DNA of 64,000 nt. Source: Campylobacterales bacterium (lineage in GTDB: Bacteria > Campylobacterota > Campylobacteria > Campylobacterales > QNZT01). The notes beneath the pieces are model-generated. The model worked only from the letters and a program-made list of their open reading frames with translations. It was not told where the DNA came from and did not search any database. Positions 17,018-39,275 of the stretch are shown here, piece by piece (position 1 is the first letter of the stretch; each line of letters begins with the position of its first letter). The DNA is taken from positions 5,123-69,122 of the forward strand of contig JAMOMC010000172.1 of the NCBI GenBank assembly GCA_027068765.1, written 5' to 3'. A program made the position numbers and the translations under genes.

Positions 17018-17350
17018 TTATATTAATGCTTCTATTCTATCTTCAAGCTCTTTTATCTTTTTTGTTAATTGATCATTTTCTAACTTATTTTGTGAGTTTC
17101 TAGCCCTTAGAGTTTTTATATCATTTCTAACTTTGTTTAATTCCTCGGTTAATATATCGATATTTCCAATTGCTCGTTGGAGTTGTATACGGTATTTTCT
17201 AATCATCAGTTTTGAATCGTCTATATTGCCTTTTTTAATTTTATTGCTTTTTTCTTCTCTCTTATATAGAGCTTTATTATAATTTAACATAATCAAAAGA
17301 TAGATAATAATAAATATCAAAATAGTATAAAAAAGCCACTCTCCAAACAT
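17018..17350 (-). CDS. Membrane-anchored coiled-coil protein, unknown function
   Basis: N-terminal TM 'WLFYTILIFIIIYLLIML' followed by a heptad-rich, K/E-rich tail. Tightly packed after rpiB. Confidence 0.5.
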   Translation of the reverse strand: MFGEWLFYTILIFIIIYLLIMLNYNKALYKREEKSNKIKKGNIDDSKLMIRKYRIQLQRAIGNIDILTEELNKVRNDIKTLRARNSQNKLENDQLTKKIKELEDRIEALI

Positions 17351-25719: not shown

Positions 25720-25768
25720 TTTTTGCACATCTTTATGATTAAAAATTAATCATAAAGATGTGCAAAAA
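25720..25768. repeat. Perfect 49-nt palindrome (23-bp arms, 3-nt centre) in a divergent intergenic region
   Basis: I read 'tttttgcacatctttatgattaa-aaa-ttaatcataaagatgtgcaaaaa' directly. The arms are exact reverse complements. Confidence 0.9.
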
Positions 25769-25810
25769 AGATTTATAAAATTATATAATAAGAGAAAAAA
25801 AGATTTAACC

Positions 25811-27391
25811 ATGAAACAATTAACTCCATTAGAGAGTTTTATAAACTATAAAACAGATACAGATAAACAGTGTGGAAATTACCATATAGAGATTGCAGAG
25901 TTAAAAGAGAATGAGCAGTATAGATTTCATTTTGATATGAGTGTCTGTATCGGTTGTCACTGTTGTGAGGTGGCTTGCAATGAGCAAAATGCTAACTCTG
26001 CAGATATAAAATGGCGTCGTGTTGGTGAGATGGAAGCGGGAGTTTTTCCAAATGTAAAGCAACTTTTTAACTCAATGAGCTGTAATCACTGTATAGATCC
26101 TGAGTGTTTAAAAGGCTGTCCTACAAACTCATATATAAAGTTTGAAAATGGCATAGTTTATCACGATGATGATGTTTGCATAGGATGCCAATACTGTACT
26201 TGGAACTGCCCTTATGAAGTCCCTATTTTTAATCCTGATAGAGGTATAGTTACAAAATGTCATATGTGTTACGAAAAGTTAGATGCAAAACAGACTCCAG
26301 CTTGTGTTCAAGCTTGTCCCGCAGGGGCGATAGAGATAGAGATTGTAAATGTTGATAAATGGTTAAAATCAGATATCAAAAAAGAGGGGGTAGCACCACA
26401 TCTTCCAGATATCTCTATCACAAAACCAACTACTAGATATACACTTCCTAAATTTGATGAAGATGTAAAGCCAGTGGATGAGCATATCTTAAAACCAGCA
26501 CACAAAGAGTTACCACTTATCTTCATGACTATCTTTTCACAAATCTCAGTTGGCGGATTTTTGGCTCTATTTTTAGGACATATTTTAAATATTGAATTTA
26601 ATTTAGAGAAGACAAATCTCTGGCTGGTAGTTGTGGTCTTTTTACCAATTGCAGTAGGTCTACCTCTTTCAGCTTTACATCTAGGTCGTCCAATTATGGC
26701 TTTTAGTGCTATGAAAAATATCAAAACTTCTTGGCTATCTCGTGAAGCTTTAGCTCTTGGTTTATATGCTTTTGGTGTTTTTTTGGTAGTTATTTTGTAT
26801 TATTTTGAAATTTTTGGTATTTTGATGACTCTTTTACAAGCTTTAGTTTTGAGTATGGGAGTTTATGGTATTTTTGCTCAATCGATGATATATCGTGTTA
26901 AAGCTAGACCATCTTGGGATAGAGTCTCAACTACAAAGAGATTTTTTGGATCAGGATATGTTGGGTTTTTGCTTGTGGGTTTTGTGATGCTTTTAGATGG
27001 AGCTAATGAGAGTGTTATGGCTATTTTGGTACTGATGTTACTTTTTGGGGGTTACCAAATTTATGCTATTTATAAAGAGGTATACTTTTATAAGTGTCTA
27101 GATGTAAATAGTATAAACTTTTATCAATTAAATAGAACAAAAAAACTTCTCGAAGAGAAATTTAGAAAGTATAAAAATATTAGGCTCACTTCGATAGTGC
27201 TATTTGCTTTAGTATTTCCACTTTTTGCTATAGTTTTTATAGTGAATGAGTCATTTGTGTTTGCTCTATTTTTACTTTTTATCTCAATTGCAGGAGCGAC
27301 TGTAAGCGAACTTTTAGGTCGTTATCTCTTTTTTGTTACGGTTGTACCTTTGGGTTTAGCAGGGAATTTTTTTGCTGGAAATCAGAGATAA
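25811..27391 (+). CDS. Fused DmsB-like 4x[4Fe-4S] ferredoxin + DmsC/YnfH-like membrane anchor
   Basis: Cys clusters 'CIGCHCCEVAC', 'CNHCIDPECLKGCP', 'CIGCQYCTWNCP' and 'CHMC...ACVQACP', followed by ~8 hydrophobic helices. I prefer ATG 25811 because the GTG at 25760 lies inside the palindrome. Confidence 0.75.
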   Translation: MKQLTPLESFINYKTDTDKQCGNYHIEIAELKENEQYRFHFDMSVCIGCHCCEVACNEQNANSADIKWRRVGEMEAGVFPNVKQLFNSMSCNHCIDPECLKGCPTNSYIKFENGIVYHDDDVCIGCQYCTWNCPYEVPIFNPDRGIVTKCHMCYEKLDAKQTPACVQACPAGAIEIEIVNVDKWLKSDIKKEGVAPHLPDISITKPTTRYTLPKFDEDVKPVDEHILKPAHKELPLIFMTIFSQISVGGFLALFLGHILNIEFNLEKTNLWLVVVVFLPIAVGLPLSALHLGRPIMAFSAMKNIKTSWLSREALALGLYAFGVFLVVILYYFEIFGILMTLLQALVLSMGVYGIFAQSMIYRVKARPSWDRVSTTKRFFGSGYVGFLLVGFVMLLDGANESVMAILVLMLLFGGYQIYAIYKEVYFYKCLDVNSINFYQLNRTKKLLEEKFRKYKNIRLTSIVLFALVFPLFAIVFIVNESFVFALFLLFISIAGATVSELLGRYLFFVTVVPLGLAGNFFAGNQR

Positions 27392-27438: not shown

Positions 27439-28254
27439 CTATTTTAACCTTTTATCCATATTTATAATTATCTCTTTAAGCTCTCTAACTTCAACTTGAA
27501 GTTTTTCAATGTCATTTAACTTTTTTTCTTGTTTCTCATCATCTTTTATAGTAAATATCGCATCTACTATAATACCTATAAAAAGGTTTATCATTACAAA
27601 AGTAACAACCAAGATATAGATAACAAAAAATATCCAAGCAAGAGGAAAAACTTCCATAACAGGACGAACAATCCCCATAGACCAACTCTCTAATGTCATG
27701 ATTTGAAAAAGTGTATACATCGACTCACCAAGAGTTCCAAACCACTGAGGAAAAGCATCTCCAAATATATCTGTTGCCATGATAGAAAATACATAGAAAA
27801 ATAGTAAAAGCATGATAGATATAGAGAAAATTCCAGGAATTGCCCCTAAAAGTGCAGATACAATAGTTCGCATCTGCGGAATAATAGTAAGCAGTCTAAA
27901 TAGCCTTAAAACTCTTAAAGTTCTAAGTATAGCCCACTGTTCACCTGCTGGAACTAGGGAAATCGCCACTACAAAAAAATCAAATAGACTCCAAGGGTCT
28001 TTAAAAAAACTAACTCTATGAACATATATTCGCAAAATTATCTCAATAGTAAAAATAGCAATAATACTCTTATCTAAAAAATTTATAATACTTCCATAGT
28101 CAGCCATTATGGGTTTTGAAGTTGCAATACCTAATATAATTCCGTTAAATATAATTAAGCTAGTTATAAAGTATCTAAACTTTTTTGACTCTATAAATAT
28201 CTCTATAATTTTATACAATTTTAAATCCTTTTGAAAAAAAGGATATTTTAGCAC
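27439..28254 (-). CDS. Bacterial voltage-gated sodium channel (NavAb/NaChBac family)
   Basis: S4 '[20 protein letters not shown]', selectivity filter '[16 protein letters not shown]', 6-TM layout and a C-terminal coiled coil. By recall it closely resembles the A. butzleri NavAb sequence. Confidence 0.9.
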
Positions 28255-28343: not shown

Positions 28344-28787
28344 ATGGAAGCACTTTACCCATATGCACAGATAATACATTTGATTTTAGCCATAATTTTT
28401 TTAGGTTATGTTTTTACAGATTTAGCGGTTATTTCAGCACTTAAAAATAGATTTGATAAAGATACTCAAAAAAAAATAACCCAAATATTAGGAGCTAGAA
28501 GTTTTAAAATATTTCCCATAACACTTTTGTTTCTAGTTTTAACAGGTGGGATGATGATGTCTAGGTTTATGAATTTGGATGTAGGTTTTTTTGAGAGTGA
28601 TTTGCAAAAAATGTTACTTTTTAAAATTCTTTTGGTTTTTATTATTGTTGCAGGTGTTTTAAGCAACCTATTTAAAAAATTTACTAAAAGAGAAAAAAGT
28701 AAGTTTATGAAAGATGATTTTCATAAATTAGTTATTGTTTTAGGGGTTTTTATTGTTGTTTTTGCAAAGTTGATGTTTTTTGTATAA
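28344..28787 (+). CDS. Small 4-TM membrane protein, unknown function
   Basis: Four hydrophobic segments. GGAG RBS 6 nt upstream of the start. Confidence 0.5.
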   Translation: MEALYPYAQIIHLILAIIFLGYVFTDLAVISALKNRFDKDTQKKITQILGARSFKIFPITLLFLVLTGGMMMSRFMNLDVGFFESDLQKMLLFKILLVFIIVAGVLSNLFKKFTKREKSKFMKDDFHKLVIVLGVFIVVFAKLMFFV

Positions 28788-32643: not shown

Positions 32644-34019
32644 AACTTGACCAATTATATTTTCGCTCTTTTCTTATTTTGTTTATAATTACAGTTTTGT
32701 TAACTTCAACTATCGGTTATATCGTTCTTAAAAATAGTGAGACAAATAGCCATAAAACCATGCTTTTATCGATGATATACCAATTTTCTATTTTAGAAGA
32801 TAGACAAAAATCTAAAGATGAGGCTGTAAAAGAGATTTATGAAAAAACATTAGTGAGAGTAACAATTATCAATCCAAAAGGAGAGGTAATATCTGAAAGT
32901 AGTAGAGATATAAAAGGGATGGATAATCATTTGAATAGAGAAGAGATACAAATGGCTATCTCTAATGATGTTGGGTTTAGTGTTAGATACTCTAAAAGTG
33001 TTGATAAAGATTATCTATATGTTGCAAAAAAGTTTCCGTATGGCTTTATCCGTATGGCTTATGCCCTTGACACTATTAAAGCTAAATTTTTTGATTTTTG
33101 GATAAAGAGTATTGCATTTATCTCTCTTATTTTACTGTTTGCATTTTGGATTGCGCTTAGAATAAATGAAAAAATAGCTCTTGATCTAAGTGCTATAAAA
33201 AATAGCTTAGATAATTTACTGAATAAAAAATATGAGAGTTTGCCAAATACTCCAAAATGTTGTAGAGAGTTTGAGACTATATCAAAGCAGATTGATAAAG
33301 TAGCTTTGAAGTTGCAAAAAAGAGATAGCCAAAAAAATAAAATTACAAAAAATCTAAAACTACACACTAAAAAACAAGCAGATATTATATCTGCAATCTC
33401 TCATGAGTTTAAAAATCCAGTCGCAGCTATAATGGGGTATGCTCAAAGTGTGAGAGAAGATGCTGATTTAAATTTAGAAATTCGAAATAGATTTTTAGAC
33501 AAAGTTATTAAAAATGGAGAAAAAATCTCTTTTATGATAGATAGACTCTCAATGGCTGTAAGGTTAGAGAGTGATGTTTTTGTACCAAATCTTACTACAT
33601 TTAAGATATCTTCTTTGCTTATGGAGGTTAAAGATACACTTTTGCAAAAGTATAAAGATAGAGAGATTATCTTAGAAATTGAAGATATAACAATCAAAGC
33701 AGATAGGTCAATGTTTGATAATCTTCTTTTAAATCTTGTAGACAATGCTTTAAAATATTCAGAAGATGCAGTAATAATTAGAGTAAAAGATGCAAAGTTA
33801 GAGGTGATAGACAAAGGTATAGGTATAAGTGAAGAGAATATAAAAAATATCACCAAACGATTTTTTAGAGTTGATAATCTATCGTGGGATAACTCAATGG
33901 GTGTTGGGCTTTATATCGTTAAATATATACTAAAACTTCATAACATAACTCTTGCAATAGATAGTAATCCTTTAAAAGGTTCAAAATTTTGGTTCACTTT
34001 GAAAAATCTTATTAAATAA
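32637..34019 (+). CDS. PhoR-like sensor histidine kinase
   Basis: Two TM helices, H-box 'ISHEFKNPVAAI', 'DNALKYS', 'DKGIGI' and 'GVGLYIV'. Confidence 0.75.
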   Translation: MLKLDQLYFRSFLILFIITVLLTSTIGYIVLKNSETNSHKTMLLSMIYQFSILEDRQKSKDEAVKEIYEKTLVRVTIINPKGEVISESSRDIKGMDNHLNREEIQMAISNDVGFSVRYSKSVDKDYLYVAKKFPYGFIRMAYALDTIKAKFFDFWIKSIAFISLILLFAFWIALRINEKIALDLSAIKNSLDNLLNKKYESLPNTPKCCREFETISKQIDKVALKLQKRDSQKNKITKNLKLHTKKQADIISAISHEFKNPVAAIMGYAQSVREDADLNLEIRNRFLDKVIKNGEKISFMIDRLSMAVRLESDVFVPNLTTFKISSLLMEVKDTLLQKYKDREIILEIEDITIKADRSMFDNLLLNLVDNALKYSEDAVIIRVKDAKLEVIDKGIGISEENIKNITKRFFRVDNLSWDNSMGVGLYIVKYILKLHNITLAIDSNPLKGSKFWFTLKNLIK

Positions 34020-34080: not shown

Positions 34081-35169
34081 ATGTTTGGACTAAAAAAGAC
34101 AATACTTTTAGATGAGTACATAAAAGAGATAGAAACTTTAAAAGATGAAAATTCTAAGTTAAAAGATACAATTTATCAACTTCAAAATAGTGTAAATTCA
34201 AATAACATAGATGATAAAGAGAGTGAAGATAATAAAAATGAGAGTGAACTGCTCTCTATATTACTTCATAGTTATGAAGATGGTATAACTTTTTTAAAAA
34301 ATGGAGCAGGTGAAAGCTTAGTAATGCTAAAAGATGTAAATAGCTTAAACACTCAAACAGTTGAGATGGTTTCAAAATCAAAAGATGAAACAGGAGATGT
34401 AATATCATCAGTTGAGAGTATTCAGCAGTATACACAGCAGTTAAAAGATAACTCTCATTCACTAAATGATAGTGTTATATCAATTTCACAGATTATTGAT
34501 TTGATTAAAGATATCTCAGATCAAACTAATTTATTGGCACTAAATGCTGCTATTGAGGCGGCAAGAGCGGGGGAACATGGTAGAGGATTTGCTGTAGTTG
34601 CTGATGAAGTTAGAAAGCTTGCTGAGAGAACACAAAAAGCAACTCAAGAAGTCGAGATAAATATCAGCGGTCTTAAACAAAATGCGAATAATATGATTGA
34701 GATTAGTGATACATTTGGTAATGAATCAGATTCTATTATGGGTATGCTAGATACATTTACAAATAATGTAGACCAAGTTGGTATAAATACTGAAAATATC
34801 ATGAATATGACAGAAAACATAACTAGAGAAGCTGCTATTAGTAATGGTAAAATAGAGCATATTCTTTTAAAATTAGGAGCATATCAAGCAATTTTAAATA
34901 ATAAAAATATTAATATAGATACTTATAGTGATTGTGGTTTTGGAAAATGGGTAAATGAAGCTGTTAAAGGATTTTTGAAAAATTGTAAAAATATTAAAGA
35001 GATTGATAAACATCATAAAAATGTACACGATGGTTTAGAAGATGCACTAAAAAGCCATTTTAAAGAGGATAATTTGAAAAAGAGTGTAGAGATATTAAGA
35101 GATGTTGAAAACTCTAGCAAAGTTGCATTTGATGATTTGATAGAGTCGGTAAAATTAGCACGAAATTAA
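34081..35169 (+). CDS. Soluble methyl-accepting chemotaxis protein with C-terminal CZB (zinc-binding) domain
   Basis: No TM segment. Signalling hairpin '[34 protein letters not shown]'. C-terminal 'CGFGKW...HHKNVHD' is a CZB-type Cys/His pattern. Confidence 0.8.
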
Positions 35170-35182
35170 AATAATTTTTATT

Positions 35183-35215
35183 AGATGAACTTGATAATTG
35201 TTATCAAGTTCATCT
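35183..35215. terminator. Perfect 15-bp stem / 3-nt loop hairpin after the MCP gene
   Basis: 'agatgaacttgataa-ttg-ttatcaagttcatct'. No U-tract follows, so it could instead be an operator for the downstream porin operon. Confidence 0.45.
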
Positions 35216-35290
35216 AAACTTAAGGTCTCTTTTGTTAAGGTTTGGTTTCGATAGTGAATATCAAAATTAAAACTTTCAAAGGAAGATGTT

Positions 35291-36559
35291 ATGAATAAAA
35301 AACTAGGAGTTACATTATCATCTATTTTGTTAACCTCTATACTAAATGCACAGACAGATATAGAGAAACTACAAAATGAGATTAATATACTCAAGAAACA
35401 ATCAGATGTATTAGCAGAAGAGCTACTAGATATATCAACTGGTTCATTTACAAAGATAGATGATTCAAAAGCACACAATGGTTTAGGTGCTGCTGCATCT
35501 AAGGTTTACTACACAAATTCACCACTATCAATTGGTGGTTATGGTGAGATGTATTGGGCAAAAGTTGACGGTGAGCGTTCATATGCAGACTTATATAGGT
35601 TTATTCCATATTTTGGTTATAAATTTTCTGATAATGTTATCTTAAATACAGAGATAGAGTTTGAACACGGAGGCTCTCAAAGTGTGAAACTTGATGGTAG
35701 TGATGAAAGTTCTGTAAGTGGGAAAATTCTTTTAGAGTTTATGTATCTTGATTTTTTAATAAGCAAATCAGTAAATATTCGAGTTGGAAATCTTTTAGTT
35801 CCTATGGGTATCACAAATCTAAGACATGAGCCTACTCTTTTTGCAACCGTACAAAGACCAGCAATTGAAAAACTACTAATCCCAAGCACTTGGCATGAAA
35901 ACGGTATACTTGTTTATGGAGATATATCTAATACTGGAATTGAATATACAACAGGTATCATCAATGCATTAAATATTAACAATACTAACACTGTTGATGG
36001 TAAAGAGAAATGGATAAGAACGGGTCGTTTAGGTTCTGCTTATAATGCACCATTTAATGCAGCATTTGTAGCAAGAGCTGACTATAGAGGCATAAATGGC
36101 TTGCTTGCGGGAGGTTCTGTATATGTAGGTGATGGTTCAAATCAAAAAAATGACATCAAAGGGACAACTATGAGTATATTTGAAGTCCATGCTGTATATA
36201 ACTATAGAGGTTTAAATATAAAAGGACTCTACACACAGTCAAATTTAAATGGAGGCGAGAAAATTTCTGCTAAAGCACCTAAAAAAGGTAGTGGATATTA
36301 TGTGAATACCTCTTATGATGTAGGTACTTTGATAGGTATTGATTTTAAGACATTAGTTTTTGCACAATATGAAAACTACAACACAAGAGAGAAACTAGTA
36401 GATGGAAGTAGCTATAAGGCTACAAATATAATCAACTTTGGTGCTAACTTTTTTCCAACTGACCAGACAGTCTTAAAAGCAGATTATCAGATAAAAGATG
36501 ATAAAAACGAGGATGATAAAGTAAACACTGCATCTTTGTCATTTGGATTTCTTTTTTAA
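35291..36559 (+). CDS. Outer-membrane porin (OprO/P-like)
   Basis: Signal peptide and an N-terminal coiled coil 'DIEKLQNEINILKKQ'. 'IRVGNLLVPMGITNLRHEPTLFATVQRP' resembles the porin O/P 'vGqfk.PfG.e......f.eR' block. C-terminal 'SFGFLF'. Confidence 0.65.
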   Translation: MNKKLGVTLSSILLTSILNAQTDIEKLQNEINILKKQSDVLAEELLDISTGSFTKIDDSKAHNGLGAAASKVYYTNSPLSIGGYGEMYWAKVDGERSYADLYRFIPYFGYKFSDNVILNTEIEFEHGGSQSVKLDGSDESSVSGKILLEFMYLDFLISKSVNIRVGNLLVPMGITNLRHEPTLFATVQRPAIEKLLIPSTWHENGILVYGDISNTGIEYTTGIINALNINNTNTVDGKEKWIRTGRLGSAYNAPFNAAFVARADYRGINGLLAGGSVYVGDGSNQKNDIKGTTMSIFEVHAVYNYRGLNIKGLYTQSNLNGGEKISAKAPKKGSGYYVNTSYDVGTLIGIDFKTLVFAQYENYNTREKLVDGSSYKATNIINFGANFFPTDQTVLKADYQIKDDKNEDDKVNTASLSFGFLF

Positions 36560-36568
36560 GGTATATTT

Positions 36569-37084
36569 ATGAAGTGGATATTTTTATTGATTTTAACTAT
36601 CTCGTCTATTTGGGCAAAATCTAATGTTGTAGATGTAGAGTCTATTATTAAAGAGAATTACACAAAAGATGTGAGCATAAAAAGAGATAAGATTATTCTT
36701 TCTAAAAAAGAGCTTGACTCTATCAAACAGATGGCAAAACTTCCTGTTAAATCTAAACTTTATAGATATTACAAAGTTGAGAGTGAAGGTACTGTTGTAG
36801 CTTATGCAATTTTAATTAGTCAAAAGGTGAGAACTAAAAAAGCTACAGTTTTATACTTTATTGAAAACCAAAAGGTGAAATTTATAGAAATTTTATCATT
36901 TTTGGAGCCAAAAGAGTATATTCCAAAAGATACTTGGATGAGTCAATTTGATGATAAGAATTTAACGGATGAATTTAAAATAGGTAGAGATATACCTACA
37001 ATTAGCGGTGCAACTATGAGTGCAAGAAGTTTAAGTGATGGAGCAAGGCTGGCAATTGCTCTTTATAGGATAAAATTAAAGTGA
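36569..37084 (+). CDS. Periplasmic FMN-binding domain protein with flavinylation motif
   Basis: Signal peptide. 'IPTISGATMSARS' matches the ApbE-type [S/T]GA[S/T] covalent FMN attachment motif. Confidence 0.7.
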   Translation: MKWIFLLILTISSIWAKSNVVDVESIIKENYTKDVSIKRDKIILSKKELDSIKQMAKLPVKSKLYRYYKVESEGTVVAYAILISQKVRTKKATVLYFIENQKVKFIEILSFLEPKEYIPKDTWMSQFDDKNLTDEFKIGRDIPTISGATMSARSLSDGARLAIALYRIKLK

Positions 37085-37554
37085 AATTTCTAACTACAAA
37101 AGAGTTAAATGAAAATCCATTTTTAAGATATTTAATAGCTGGATTACTAGCTTTTTTTGTACTATTTTTAATCTCAGATATTGCTCTTCATCATTTACAA
37201 ATTGGCTTAAGCTTTAAAGAAGCTTGCTCTTTGATTTTAGGAGATGAAGAGGAGTTTATAGAGCCTATACTTCTAGAGACTCTTCTTCTTATAGTTCATA
37301 TTGACCTCTTTTTCTCTATGCTTTTACTTCTTTGTCTTACAGCTATATCTATTAGAGTTTTTAAAAGAGGTAATCCAACATTTTTATTTTTAAATACTCT
37401 TTATATATTAGCTATTTTAGCTCCACTGCTTTTAATCTCTAGCTATTTTTTTGGTAAGTTTGTTGTAGTGAGTTGGGTAGTAGTATTTGTAATTTGGCAT
37501 ATTTTGGCTCTTTTTTTATCTTTAAAAACTCTTTATGCGATTTTTAGATTATGA
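37081..37554 (+). CDS. 4-TM membrane protein with conserved His (unknown)
   Basis: Hydrophobic helices; 'ALHHLQ', 'ETLLLIVHIDLFFSM' and 'VIWHIL'. 4-bp overlap with the upstream gene. Confidence 0.5.
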   Translation: MKFLTTKELNENPFLRYLIAGLLAFFVLFLISDIALHHLQIGLSFKEACSLILGDEEEFIEPILLETLLLIVHIDLFFSMLLLLCLTAISIRVFKRGNPTFLFLNTLYILAILAPLLLISSYFFGKFVVVSWVVVFVIWHILALFLSLKTLYAIFRL

Positions 37555-37964
37555 GAGATGAAAGTAAATTTTCACTTGTTATCTTTTATAGTTTAGTTTT
37601 TGCATCTTTAACTATCTTTAGTGGATTGGGACTTTTTGTTTTGGATGAGAGTTGGTCAAGTAGTCAAAGTGAGCTTAAAAAAAGTTTTGAAGGGATGCTT
37701 GAGGTTGTAACTCCTCATCTCTTTGCTATGGCAATTTTTGCTTTTGTAATAAATCATTTTTTACTTTTTATCCAAGGCTTTTGTCAAAAAAAGGCATTAA
37801 AATTCTCAATGTTTATCTATCTTGTTATTGTTTTGATAAATTTTAGTGGATATTTTGCATCTTTGGGATTTGTCGCTTTCATCTGGATAAAAATCTTTTT
37901 TTTACTCATTTTCACCCTTAGCTTTTTATGGGTATTTTATAAAATCTTAGGCTATAATCGTTAA
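37551..37964 (+). CDS. 4-TM membrane protein with conserved His (unknown; distant paralog of the preceding gene?)
   Basis: 'MLEVVTPHLFAMAIFAFVINHF' echoes the 'E....H.(D)LF.M' segment of the previous protein. 4-bp overlap. Confidence 0.5.
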   Translation: MRDESKFSLVIFYSLVFASLTIFSGLGLFVLDESWSSSQSELKKSFEGMLEVVTPHLFAMAIFAFVINHFLLFIQGFCQKKALKFSMFIYLVIVLINFSGYFASLGFVAFIWIKIFFLLIFTLSFLWVFYKILGYNR

Positions 37965-37976
37965 AAACGGAATATT

Positions 37977-39275
37977 TTGAATACTTTAGAAGAGACATTA
38001 AGACATCTTGAAACAAGAAATATATTTTTAACAGGTGGAGCAGGAGTTGGGAAAAGTTATCTTACGAAAGAGATAAAAGATAGTTATGAAAATAGTTATA
38101 GAGGTGTTATTGTTCTTGGAAGTACAGGAATTTCAGCTGTAAATGTTGGAGGACAGACAATTCATAGTTTTTTTGCATTTGGCATCTCATCTAACTTTGA
38201 AGAGTTAGCATCAAATGATAGATACAATAAAAATAGACTAAAAGAGCTTACAAAAATTCTCAAAAAAACTAAACTTTTAATCATTGATGAGATTAGCATG
38301 GTTAGTGCTGATTTGATGGATATGATACTTTATCGCCTTAGAAATGCAAAATTTGGTGGAAAAATTTTGGTTGTTGGGGATTTTTATCAACTTCCTCCTA
38401 TACAAAAAACTAAAAACAGCACCATATTTTCTGAAAATCTTTATGCATTTCAAAGTAGTGCTTGGGAAGTTTTTGATTTTGTTTCACTTGAATTAACCAA
38501 AATTAAAAGAACTTCAAATAAAGAGTTTATGAAAGTTTTAGAAAAAATTAGAGTAGGGGAGTTAGATAATGAAGTTTTAAGATATTTAAATATTTTAAAG
38601 GAACAGAGTTTTGATAATATAAACGAAGCGACCACTCTTCACGGAAGAAATTTAGAGGCTGATTTAGTAAATAGACAAAAAGTGGCTGGGGTAGCAATGC
38701 CTGAGCATGATTTACCTGCAATTACAGAGATAAAAGATAAAAAACTTCATGAAAATAGAATAAAATCTTGGAAAAATTCACTTCCAATTGTTGAAGATTT
38801 AAAACTAAAAGAGGGAATACCTATAATATTTACAACAAATAAATGGGGGAATTTTCACAATGGAGAGAGAGCATTTGTTGAGCATATAGATAGTGATAGT
38901 GTAGTAGTTTCTAAAGAGGGTAGGCTTTTAAAAGTTGATAGATTTGAATTTGAACTTGGAAGATCTGAGATAAATGAAAAAGGAGCTTTAGACTCTGAAG
39001 TTTTATGTACATTAAAACAGTTTCCACTTCGCCCAGCTTATGCCATAACTATACATAAATCACAAGGCATGAGTTTAAATCAACTTATTTGCAATGTTGA
39101 CAATATCTTTGCAGATAGTCAATTTTATGTTGCTTTAAGCCGTGCAGTTGACCCTAAAAAGCTTAAAATTTTATACACAAGAGATGATTTTGAAGTTTAC
39201 TTAAAAAGGGTTGTAAATGTGAGTGAGAGTGTTAAAGAGTTTTATCAAAAAAGTGATATGATAAAACTTGATTAA
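37977..39275 (+). CDS. PIF1/RecD-family SF1 DNA helicase
   Basis: Walker A 'GGAGVGKSY', 'LIIDEISMV', 'VVGDFYQLPP' and 'AITIHKSQGMS'. TTG start. Confidence 0.75.
   Translation: MNTLEETLRHLETRNIFLTGGAGVGKSYLTKEIKDSYENSYRGVIVLGSTGISAVNVGGQTIHSFFAFGISSNFEELASNDRYNKNRLKELTKILKKTKLLIIDEISMVSADLMDMILYRLRNAKFGGKILVVGDFYQLPPIQKTKNSTIFSENLYAFQSSAWEVFDFVSLELTKIKRTSNKEFMKVLEKIRVGELDNEVLRYLNILKEQSFDNINEATTLHGRNLEADLVNRQKVAGVAMPEHDLPAITEIKDKKLHENRIKSWKNSLPIVEDLKLKEGIPIIFTTNKWGNFHNGERAFVEHIDSDSVVVSKEGRLLKVDRFEFELGRSEINEKGALDSEVLCTLKQFPLRPAYAITIHKSQGMSLNQLICNVDNIFADSQFYVALSRAVDPKKLKILYTRDDFEVYLKRVVNVSESVKEFYQKSDMIKLD

Follow-up and report, generated by a model that had tools for sequence, protein, structure and literature searches.

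A putative Fur-controlled cassette of porin, flavoprotein and PF27139 membrane proteins for periplasmic electron transfer in Campylobacterota

Covalent flavinylation by ApbE is now viewed as a major route by which electrons leave the bacterial cytoplasm. Every flavinylation cluster described contains a transmembrane (TM) electron conduit (PMC8238504), and six classes of membrane partner have been catalogued, namely NapH-like, MsrQ-like, PepSY-like, DsbD, Nqr/Rnf-like and DUF4405/FezC proteins (PMC8238504, PMC11334425). Binding of haem b has been shown by experiment for apbE-associated DUF4405 proteins and for the ferrosome protein FezC, whose haem sites were proposed, from an AlphaFold model, to form via homodimerisation (PMC11334425). 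Fur-repressed flavinylation clusters are found in Caulobacter and Shewanella (PMC3751524, PMC8238504). Herein, we describe a four-gene cassette at positions 35291–37964 of a 64-kb stretch of a Campylobacterales genome (contig JAMOMC010000172.1; "the window" denotes the whole stretch analysed). Its genes, termed g1 to g4, encode a porin, a protein of the flavin mononucleotide (FMN)-binding FMN_bind type and two inner-membrane proteins with four TM segments each. The cassette very likely acts as a flavinylation-dependent extracytosolic electron-transfer module and, judging from its sequence and genomic company, is probably a Fur-repressed, flavin-based module for periplasmic iron reduction and assimilation. 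A preliminary description of this DNA had proposed an extracytosolic electron-transfer operon, a reading that is supported by the co-conservation of the four genes, the linkage and fusion to apbE, the invariant flavinylation motif and histidines, and several links to iron.

Conservation of the cassette and its link to flavinylation

The open reading frame (ORF) listing of the window bore out four ORFs on the forward strand, g1 at 35291–36559 (422 aa), g2 at 36569–37084 (171 aa), g3 at 37081–37554 (157 aa, GTG start) and g4 at 37551–37964 (137 aa). Tight coupling had been claimed for them; the two 4-nt overlaps (GTGA between g2 and g3, ATGA between g3 and g4) were as claimed, but the gap between g1 and g2 measured 9 nt and not 10 bp. 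Almost every relative retains the ATGA overlap of g3 with g4, and this implies translational coupling.

Related loci were collected by a g2 profile scan with one genome per species. This survey yielded 75 loci, all from Campylobacterota (Sulfurovum, Sulfurimonadaceae, Arcobacter, Hydrogenimonas and Sulfuricurvum, metagenome-assembled genomes included), and the addition of two contigs carrying the window's own genes gave a set of 77. Loss of co-conservation had been named beforehand as a finding that would speak against the operon. Homologs of g1, g3 and g4 were present in 70, 69 and 65 of the 77 loci, respectively, with most absences explained by contig ends, and in about 60 loci the g1 homolog immediately preceded g2. 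The cassette thus recurs in about 70 independent loci of Campylobacterota, as well as in distant high-GC lineages, and for this reason g1–g4 are more than chance ORFs. In the distant clusters, the order is fur, porin, FMN_bind-like gene, one gene of the g3/g4 family (PF27139) and apbE; their porins match g1 at E values of 1e-95 to 1e-101, and their FMN_bind-like protein matches g2 at E 1e-42. The window itself has a G+C content of about 30%, and its proteins are nearest to those of uncultured Campylobacterales, the nearest named genus being Sulfurovum (47–49% identity for g2).

The protein encoded by g2 carries the sequence ISGATMS at residues 145–151, in which S146, G147 and T149 were invariant in 25 diverse homologs. 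The predicted covalent FMN acceptor is T149, within D141-I-P-T-I-S-G-A-T149. An N-terminal signal peptide, MKWIFLLILTISSIWA/KS, was read from the sequence, and homologs have equivalent N-termini. The window's g2 matched Pfam FMN_bind below the gathering cut-off (E 0.0022; 19.1 vs 22 bits) and NCBIfam rnfG weakly over nearly its full length (E 3e-4); about 30 of its homologs have a precomputed PF04205 match, and the family profile matched solved RnfG chains (9eri_G, E 3.8e-9; 7zc6_G, E 2.4e-5). When this profile was compared with the PDB, the segment D-I-P-T-I-S-G-A-T aligned with the I-T-G-[AS]-T motif of RnfG, which we take to be its flavinylation site, containing the flavinylated Thr as in RnfG/NqrC. 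With the signal peptide, the invariant residues and the RnfG match, the earlier identification of g2 as a secreted FMN_bind-type protein with an [S/T]GA[S/T] motif holds.

Neighbour clustering of the 75 loci revealed that their commonest extra gene is a convergent apbE directly after g4, whose product matches Pfam ApbE at E 2.4e-58. This arrangement was found in 53 of the 58 loci with enough downstream sequence. Furthermore, apbE lies within the operon in the distant clusters L078, L079, L081, L082 and L084, and ApbE is fused to the PF27139 TM domain in four proteins (P0197, P0213, P0217 and P0218). The search for apbE that had been suggested before gave a divided result: the gene adjoins g4 in most relatives, but tblastn found none in the 64-kb window, and the sister contig has none either. 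Flavinylation in the window's organism therefore depends on an apbE outside these two contigs. The slot after g4 is empty or occupied by other genes in the window and its close relative L003. Flavinylation of g2 is strongly supported for the family by motif and synteny, and for the window's genome itself it is a prediction. The window holds in this slot a forward-strand gene for a PIF1/RecD-like SF1B helicase (37977–39275), which starts 12 nt after g4 and is not conserved there in the relatives; its placement suggests a lineage-specific rearrangement that displaced apbE.

The g1 protein carries a signal peptide, and bZIP/ZapB-type matches to residues ~6–54 reveal a coiled coil at its N-terminus. 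The window's g1 had no Pfam match at E ≤ 1; 13 of 25 members of its family matched Porin_O_P (PF07396; best E 7e-14), and the family profile matched OprO (4rjw) weakly and only in the C-terminal third (E 0.03). It is accordingly classed as a predicted outer-membrane β-barrel of the distant OprO/P superfamily, and its earlier description as an OprO/P-like porin with a coiled coil was right at the superfamily level. The family extends beyond Campylobacterota, with 25–35% identity to high-GC homologs (E 1e-58 to 1e-101). Its invariant columns are E121-x-E123-x-E125, E149, H179-E180-P181 and T200-W201. This dominance of Glu and His argues against anion selectivity, and such strict invariance points to a site dedicated to the binding or selection of a cation, not to a phosphate filter. 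No [S/T]GA[S/T] motif was seen in g1 by eye, and a DUF3570-type flavinylated outer-membrane protein was rejected on this ground.

It could be argued that g1 is a phosphate-selective OprO/P porin of the Pho regulon, and that its juxtaposition with g2–g4 is meaningless. The distant kinship with Porin_O_P would fit, as would pstCAB-phoU-phoBR, which lie 1.3–6.4 kb upstream of g1 on the same strand, the position downstream of the Pho system that the preliminary description had pointed out. However, pst or phoU was found near the cassette in none of the 75 related loci, so that pst/pho genes stand beside it only in the window's lineage, and response regulators near related cassettes were only ~30% identical to the window's PhoB. 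The position is real, but the adjacency is therefore accidental. In addition, g1 and g2 are tightly linked, also in distant phyla, Fur-type boxes precede g1 (see below), and a chemoreceptor gene and a strong palindrome stand between phoR and g1. A Pho-regulated phosphate porin was thus rejected, and we regard this explanation as hardly credible.

Some loci depart from the standard arrangement. A variant long operon was observed in L011, L051, L061 and L064 (e.g. L051:121–9720), with the order imelysin, DHOR di-haem oxidoreductase, imelysin, fatty-acid-hydroxylase-like membrane protein, porin paralog, di-haem cytochrome c peroxidase, g2, g3 and g4; in L051 and L011, apbE and a Fur-family gene come next. 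L061 has g2 without g3, g4 and apbE, and the contig of L064 stops inside g3. The porin paralogs of all four operons lack a Fur box directly upstream. A further cluster (L078:6985–9917) has a DUF6662 protein (294 aa, probably a small β-barrel) in place of the porin and, instead of the PF27139 protein, one of 145 aa that scores above the Pfam threshold for cytochrome b561, which suggests that outer- and inner-membrane partners are swapped modularly around an FMN_bind–ApbE core.

The PF27139 membrane proteins and their candidate haem sites

The g4 protein has a precomputed match to Pfam PF27139 (Aq_1264_TM), and g3 has no match of its own; our general Pfam scan, run on a copy that predates PF27139, gave no match for either. 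A word-indexed search with g4 alone returned only 4 close matches, and profile and exhaustive searches were required. Searching with a profile of g4 homologs recovered a second subgroup of 170–175-aa PF27139 proteins, and the exhaustive PF27139 search yielded 638 representative clusters at E ≤ 1e-3. Single-copy PF27139 proteins matched both the g3 hidden Markov model (1e-17, full length) and the g4 model (1e-23) and aligned end to end with g3, and hhalign of g3 against g4 gave E 7e-5. These results indicate that g3 and g4 are diverged paralogs of one ancestral protein, g3 being the divergent copy, in which the ancestral N-terminus (MKFLxTKEL) is retained. A helix motif shared by the two had been reported; as written it is only approximate, but the paralogy behind it is real. 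Both were also described as small proteins with four TM segments, in agreement with the AlphaFold2 models, which contain four long helices each (mean predicted local distance difference test score, pLDDT, 84.5 for g4; 63.6, a low confidence, for g3).

Several fusions appeared in a census of 219 family proteins, comprising 146 representatives from the exhaustive search and 73 earlier homologs. Twenty-two were tandem fusions of a g3-like and a g4-like domain (305–339 aa), whose histidines follow the pattern of the split pair. In P0189, for example, the N-terminal half is g3-like ('MKFFTTG...', one His in TM2) and the C-terminal half is g4-like ('PH...x12...H'). P0197 is a tandem fusion of this kind with an ApbE domain added, P0213, P0217 and P0218 join a single TM domain to ApbE, and P0272 combines the TM domain with DtxR-type metal-binding and FeoA domains. 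A single PF27139 domain with PilZ was seen in P0257. Because natural tandem fusions and single-gene forms of the family both exist, g3 and g4 probably form a heterodimer. Tandem fusion is a classic sign of split proteins that work as one unit, and the fusions found here tie this unit to ApbE and to iron.

The histidines of g3 and g4, noted earlier as possible ligands of haem or metal, are conserved in homologs. For g3, H73 in TM2 was kept in 67 of 68 homologs, H140 in TM4 in 64 and H37 in 50; position 105 is His in 51 of them and Asn in the window. For g4, H56 and H69 were found in all 64 homologs, P55-H56 and H69 being invariant on TM2, and E51 and K114 were conserved as well. Of 241 domains of the PF27139 family, 219 have H56, 217 have H69 and 219 have K114, and the domains without H56 or H69 are mostly g3-like halves of tandem fusions. 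The two TM2 histidines of g4 are 13 residues apart, which we take to be the spacing on one helix of di-haem cytochromes b (the bis-His haem pattern). A candidate inter-subunit site near the periplasm, made up of g3 H73 and g4 H56, is consistent across the family; a deeper second site, made up of g4 H69 and g3 H140, is plausible in Campylobacterota and is not universal. As g3 and g4 are the sole candidates for a transmembrane electron conduit in the cassette, we slightly favour a haem-b conduit, with the heterodimer as the preferred form and haem binding as a prediction.

Several comparisons count against this assignment. Neither sequence nor structure of g3/g4 showed significant likeness to any known haem-b family: all Foldseek matches of the g4 model to the PDB had E > 2 (the model of g3 was of insufficient quality for such a comparison), the family profile found no relative among PDB sequences, and hhalign of the g3/g4 family against the cytochrome-like TM proteins of L078 and L079 was not significant. 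The site on the cytoplasmic side is weak. There is no His in g3 equivalent to g4 H69, position 105 is the Asn mentioned above, and the TM4 His was not seen in the N-domains of the two tandem fusions that were read, P0189 and P0197. Only one candidate inter-subunit bis-His site is therefore universal. In the cluster of the distant g2 homolog P0109 (DUF6662, FMN_bind, ApbE and a 145-aa TM protein), the TM protein does pass the Pfam cut-off for prokaryotic cytochrome b561 (31.0 vs 30.1 bits). A link between PF27139 and cytochrome b561 or DUF4405 was nevertheless rejected, given a single marginal match (one g4 homolog to prokaryotic cytochrome b561, E 0.015) and the non-significant hhalign result.

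The missing homology to haem proteins leaves room for another explanation, with the same architecture and Fur control, in which g3/g4 would not be a cytochrome but either a permease for Fe2+ or another metal, importing the product of reduction by g2, or an exporter of flavin adenine dinucleotide (FAD) for the periplasmic ApbE. E51, H56, H69 and K114 would suit an ion path too, the fusion of TM, DtxR-type and FeoA domains in P0272 resembles transporter regulation, and direct ApbE fusions would fit a role in flavin supply, for which Listeria provides a precedent with its dedicated transporter for extracytosolic flavin (PMC9973259). However, feoAB already stands beside the L082 cluster. A FAD exporter also seems unnecessary, because the ApbE-dependent Nqr, Rnf and NosR function in many bacteria that are not expected to carry PF27139. 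The 13-residue spacing, together with matching partner histidines in g3, presumably reflects the bis-His haem pattern. Finally, a transporter would leave g2 without an electron donor, whereas the described flavinylation clusters all have one (PMC8238504). On these grounds we consider a transporter a serious but unlikely rival and retain the electron conduit.

The upstream palindrome and the iron context

A perfect 15-bp hairpin had been reported ahead of the operon. The repeat is real and perfect, but its arms, at 35181–35197 and 35201–35217, are 17 nt each (100% complementary, 3-nt spacer), and it is better interpreted as a putative Fur operator. It is one of two perfect inverted repeats (at least 15 bp) in the 64 kb. 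Its core contains a distal Fur-like box, TGATAATTGTTATCA (35192–35206), which agrees with the 7-1-7 consensus TGATAATnATTATCA at 13 of 14 positions, the best match to the Fur consensus in the 64 kb, and overlaps the promoter-like sequence TTGATA-18-TAAACT. A proximal box, CGATAGTGAATATCA (35249–35263), agrees at 11 of 14 positions and lies about 28 nt ahead of the start of g1, followed by a putative ribosome-binding site, AAGGAAG (35279–35285). The palindrome core and the proximal box are best read as predicted Fur-type operators. The palindrome starts 12 nt past the stop codon of the upstream chemoreceptor gene and may also be the terminator of that gene. A plain intrinsic terminator was rejected, as the terminator scanner made no call and no T-run follows the repeat. 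Known RNA elements of the leader and the operon, riboswitches included, were likewise rejected, an Rfam E-value scan of 34900–38200 giving nothing credible. The only other Fur-box-like sites in the window, at 17305–17319 between a phosphoribosyltransferase gene and rpiB and at 33002–33016 inside phoR, match at 12 of 14 positions each and are probably chance matches.

Eight promoters of relatives were inspected, and each appears to hold two boxes, with the proximal one reading ...GATAATGAATATCAAAAC... in L004, L005 and L010. We then counted boxes matching at least 12 of 14 positions within 260 nt upstream of g1 homologs. Such boxes were found upstream of 48 of 58 porin homologs, as compared with 24 of 238 upstream regions that served as controls within these loci and 3% of random windows; the Fisher p value against the controls was 2.5e-27, uncorrected for relatedness, and it overstates independence because the loci are phylogenetically related. 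Nine of the ten porins without a box are not directly adjacent to g2, and these are mostly paralogs from variant operons.

Fur-family genes accompany the cassette in distant lineages. They lie directly upstream of the porin in L081, L082 and L084, where their products scored best on Fur models, below the equivalog cut-offs and with PerR models close behind. In L081 and L084, all Fur-like sites of the locus fall in the spacer between fur and porin, and in L082 this spacer has one of the two 13/14 sites of the locus, TGATAATGATTTTCA. All three spacers (L081:4740–4775, L084:4740–4765 and L082:4876–4902) share the operator-like sequence TGATTTTCAATTTCA; the clusters are distant ones of high (72%) and 54% GC content, with 14.5 kb searched in each of the two high-GC loci. 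Fur-family genes are also found near the cassette in L011, L051 and L071. Other iron-related neighbours include feoAB and TonB-ExbBD in L082, a TonB-dependent receptor in L004, an ABC importer in L051 (substrate-binding protein, permease and ATPase) read as Fe3+-type, and the imelysin and DHOR genes of the variant operons. Taken together with the DtxR/FeoA fusion, these observations substantiate the possible link to iron assimilation raised in the preliminary description, and we are fairly confident in predicting control of the cassette by a Fur-family regulator and iron.

The immediate surroundings of the cassette are not shared. Upstream of it lie pstCAB-phoU-phoB-phoR and then a forward-strand gene for a methyl-accepting chemotaxis protein (MCP) with a C-terminal CZB (chemoreceptor zinc-binding) domain (34081–35169), located directly upstream of the Fur-box palindrome; downstream is the PIF1-like helicase gene. 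The MCP and helicase neighbours are conserved in none of the relatives' loci. No TM segment was obvious by eye in the MCP. Further upstream, the second perfect inverted repeat of the window (~25726–25760) lies just before a 543-aa ORF on the forward strand (25760–27391), in which a 4Fe-4S dicluster domain (DmsB-like Fer4_11) is fused to a DmsC-like membrane anchor. Just before pstC, a NaChBac-like voltage-gated cation channel (Ion_trans) is encoded on the reverse strand (27439–28254), and the forward strand encodes a membrane protein of 147 aa that matches CopD weakly (28344–28787).

Proposed mechanism and comparison with known systems

The best-supported function of the cassette is iron-regulated reductive assimilation of iron. 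The mechanism that follows is one that we infer, from the binding of haem and the source and direction of the electrons to the iron substrate and the selectivity of the porin. The g3/g4 heterodimer, made of two diverged copies of the Aq_1264_TM fold, would deliver electrons, drawn most likely from the quinol pool, to the periplasmic side. Haem of the b type would be held between the subunits, by g3 H73 and g4 H56 near the periplasm and by g3 H140 and g4 H69 deeper in the membrane. After export, g2 would be modified covalently with FMN at T149 by an ApbE flavin transferase whose gene lies elsewhere in the genome, and would then act as a periplasmic one- or two-electron carrier or reductase. The g1 protein would be a dedicated outer-membrane pore, whose Glu/His motifs and periplasmic coiled coil may admit the substrate or dock the flavoprotein. 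The substrate passing through it would most likely be ferric iron or ferric chelates, and we give ferric iron about even chances; import of the Fe(II) product would fall to a transporter outside the cassette, for instance FeoB. Under iron-replete conditions, Fur would bind at 35192–35206 and 35249–35263 and switch the operon off.

Besides the points raised above on haem, the following tell against this interpretation. The FMN_bind score of the window's g2 falls short of the Pfam cut-off, neither the window nor the sister contig supplies an apbE, and literature searches found no experiments on any member of the cassette. Moreover, genes for cytochrome c peroxidase, MsrA-like proteins, DsbD and thioredoxin-domain proteins (DUF255) are frequent neighbours of the cassette, and boxes of the Fur family resemble those of PerR, just as the adjacent regulators score on PerR models near Fur. 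These last observations feed the main functional rival, a periplasmic oxidative-stress or redox-repair system under a PerR/Fur-family regulator, in which electrons would go to a peroxidase or repair enzyme and not to iron. Di-haem cytochrome c peroxidase genes occur in 14 loci, in the variant operons directly between the porin paralog and g2, and MsrPQ sets a precedent for a haem-b membrane protein that feeds a periplasmic repair enzyme (PMC8238504). However, such neighbours are largely a matter of Sulfurovum-type synteny and are absent from the window and from the distant clusters, whereas apbE, fur, feoAB, TonB and DtxR/FeoA accompany the cassette across phyla. The peroxidases of the variant operons come with imelysin and DHOR genes, which are implicated in iron uptake, and peroxide offers no ready reason for a dedicated porin. 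An oxidative-stress role is thus improbable in our view, and iron reduction is preferred.

A more far-reaching proposal would be a hitherto unrecognised TonB-independent reductive iron import across the whole envelope, with PF27139 as a new class of split, heterodimeric cytochrome b, a covalent-flavin shuttle, a metal-specific porin lined by Glu and His, and a coiled coil that docks the flavoprotein. In its boldest version, porin and flavoprotein would be a flavin counterpart of porin-cytochrome conduits like MtrAB that delivers electrons to extracellular ferric minerals at hydrothermal vents. We offer this as speculation that is unlikely to hold.

That the arrangement was not recognised as a characterised one agrees with our searches. 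The PF27139 family, the split-paralog architecture and the dedicated coiled-coil porin are absent from the flavinylation catalogues (PMC8238504, PMC11334425). Literature searches found no mention of Aq_1264 and, in work on ApbE, Fur, porins and Sulfurovum, no description of the cassette; the tables that supplement Meheust et al. do not describe it for Sulfurovum/Sulfurimonas either. PF27139 would thus be a seventh candidate class of membrane partner, which comes with a dedicated outer-membrane porin and takes the form of single genes, split pairs, tandem fusions and ApbE fusions, and the conserved Fur-type operator places the system in iron acquisition. The cassette is common in chemolithoautotrophs of the Sulfurovum and Sulfurimonas type, dominant in sulfidic and vent habitats with complex iron speciation, and it therefore offers a testable mechanism for their iron supply. 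Experimental handles are a flavinylation site of one residue, four candidate haem ligands, natural fusions that lend themselves to expression and two operator sites.

Among described systems, the PepSY-like/DUF2271/ApbE clusters, exemplified by Caulobacter CC_3059–CC_3063 and Shewanella (PMC8238504, PMC3751524), share with the cassette iron repression, apbE, a secreted [S/T]GA[S/T] protein, a membrane protein with histidines that serves as the presumed outward path of electrons for reducing and assimilating iron and, often, an outer-membrane partner. The components differ: the flavoprotein is DUF2271 there and RnfG-like FMN_bind here, the membrane protein is PepSY_TM there and PF27139, with four TM segments and two paralogs, here, and in the outer membrane a TonB-independent porin takes the place of their TonB-dependent receptor or DUF4198 protein. 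The present cassette also has no NAD-binding domain.

For the individual components, DUF4405/FezC proteins are, like g3 and g4, small and polytopic, cluster with apbE, bear central conserved histidines and are linked to iron handling (PMC11334425). FezC was modelled to dimerise for its haem sites (PMC11334425), and the same is proposed for g3/g4. In contrast, there is no significant sequence likeness, the subunits of g3/g4 have four TM segments and not six, and the dimer proposed here is a heterodimer of diverged paralogs in which haem binding is predicted only. RnfG/NqrC are the best sequence relatives of g2 (9eri_G), with the covalent-FMN Thr in ...I-[ST]-G-A-T.... Unlike them, g2 is free-standing with a signal peptide, its partners are a porin and PF27139 proteins, and no RnfA–E or NqrA–F genes lie near it. 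OprO/OprP (PF07396) show a distant barrel kinship with g1, as seen in the 13 of 25 family members and in 4rjw, whereas the window's g1 misses the Pfam model, has a coiled coil and invariant Glu/His motifs, and is tied to Fur boxes and flavinylation genes instead of the Pho regulon.

In overall logic, the cassette also resembles the actinobacterial clusters for assimilatory iron reduction that combine an MsrQ-like protein, FMN_bind and VIT1 (PMC8238504). There, Fe(III) is reduced by a flavinylated FMN_bind protein that obtains its electrons from a membrane protein with haem b, and the resulting Fe(II) enters through a transporter of its own. The MsrQ-like proteins differ in having a ferric-reductase domain with six TM segments, often NAD-linked, and those clusters have no outer-membrane component, which in the cassette described here would be provided by the porin g1.

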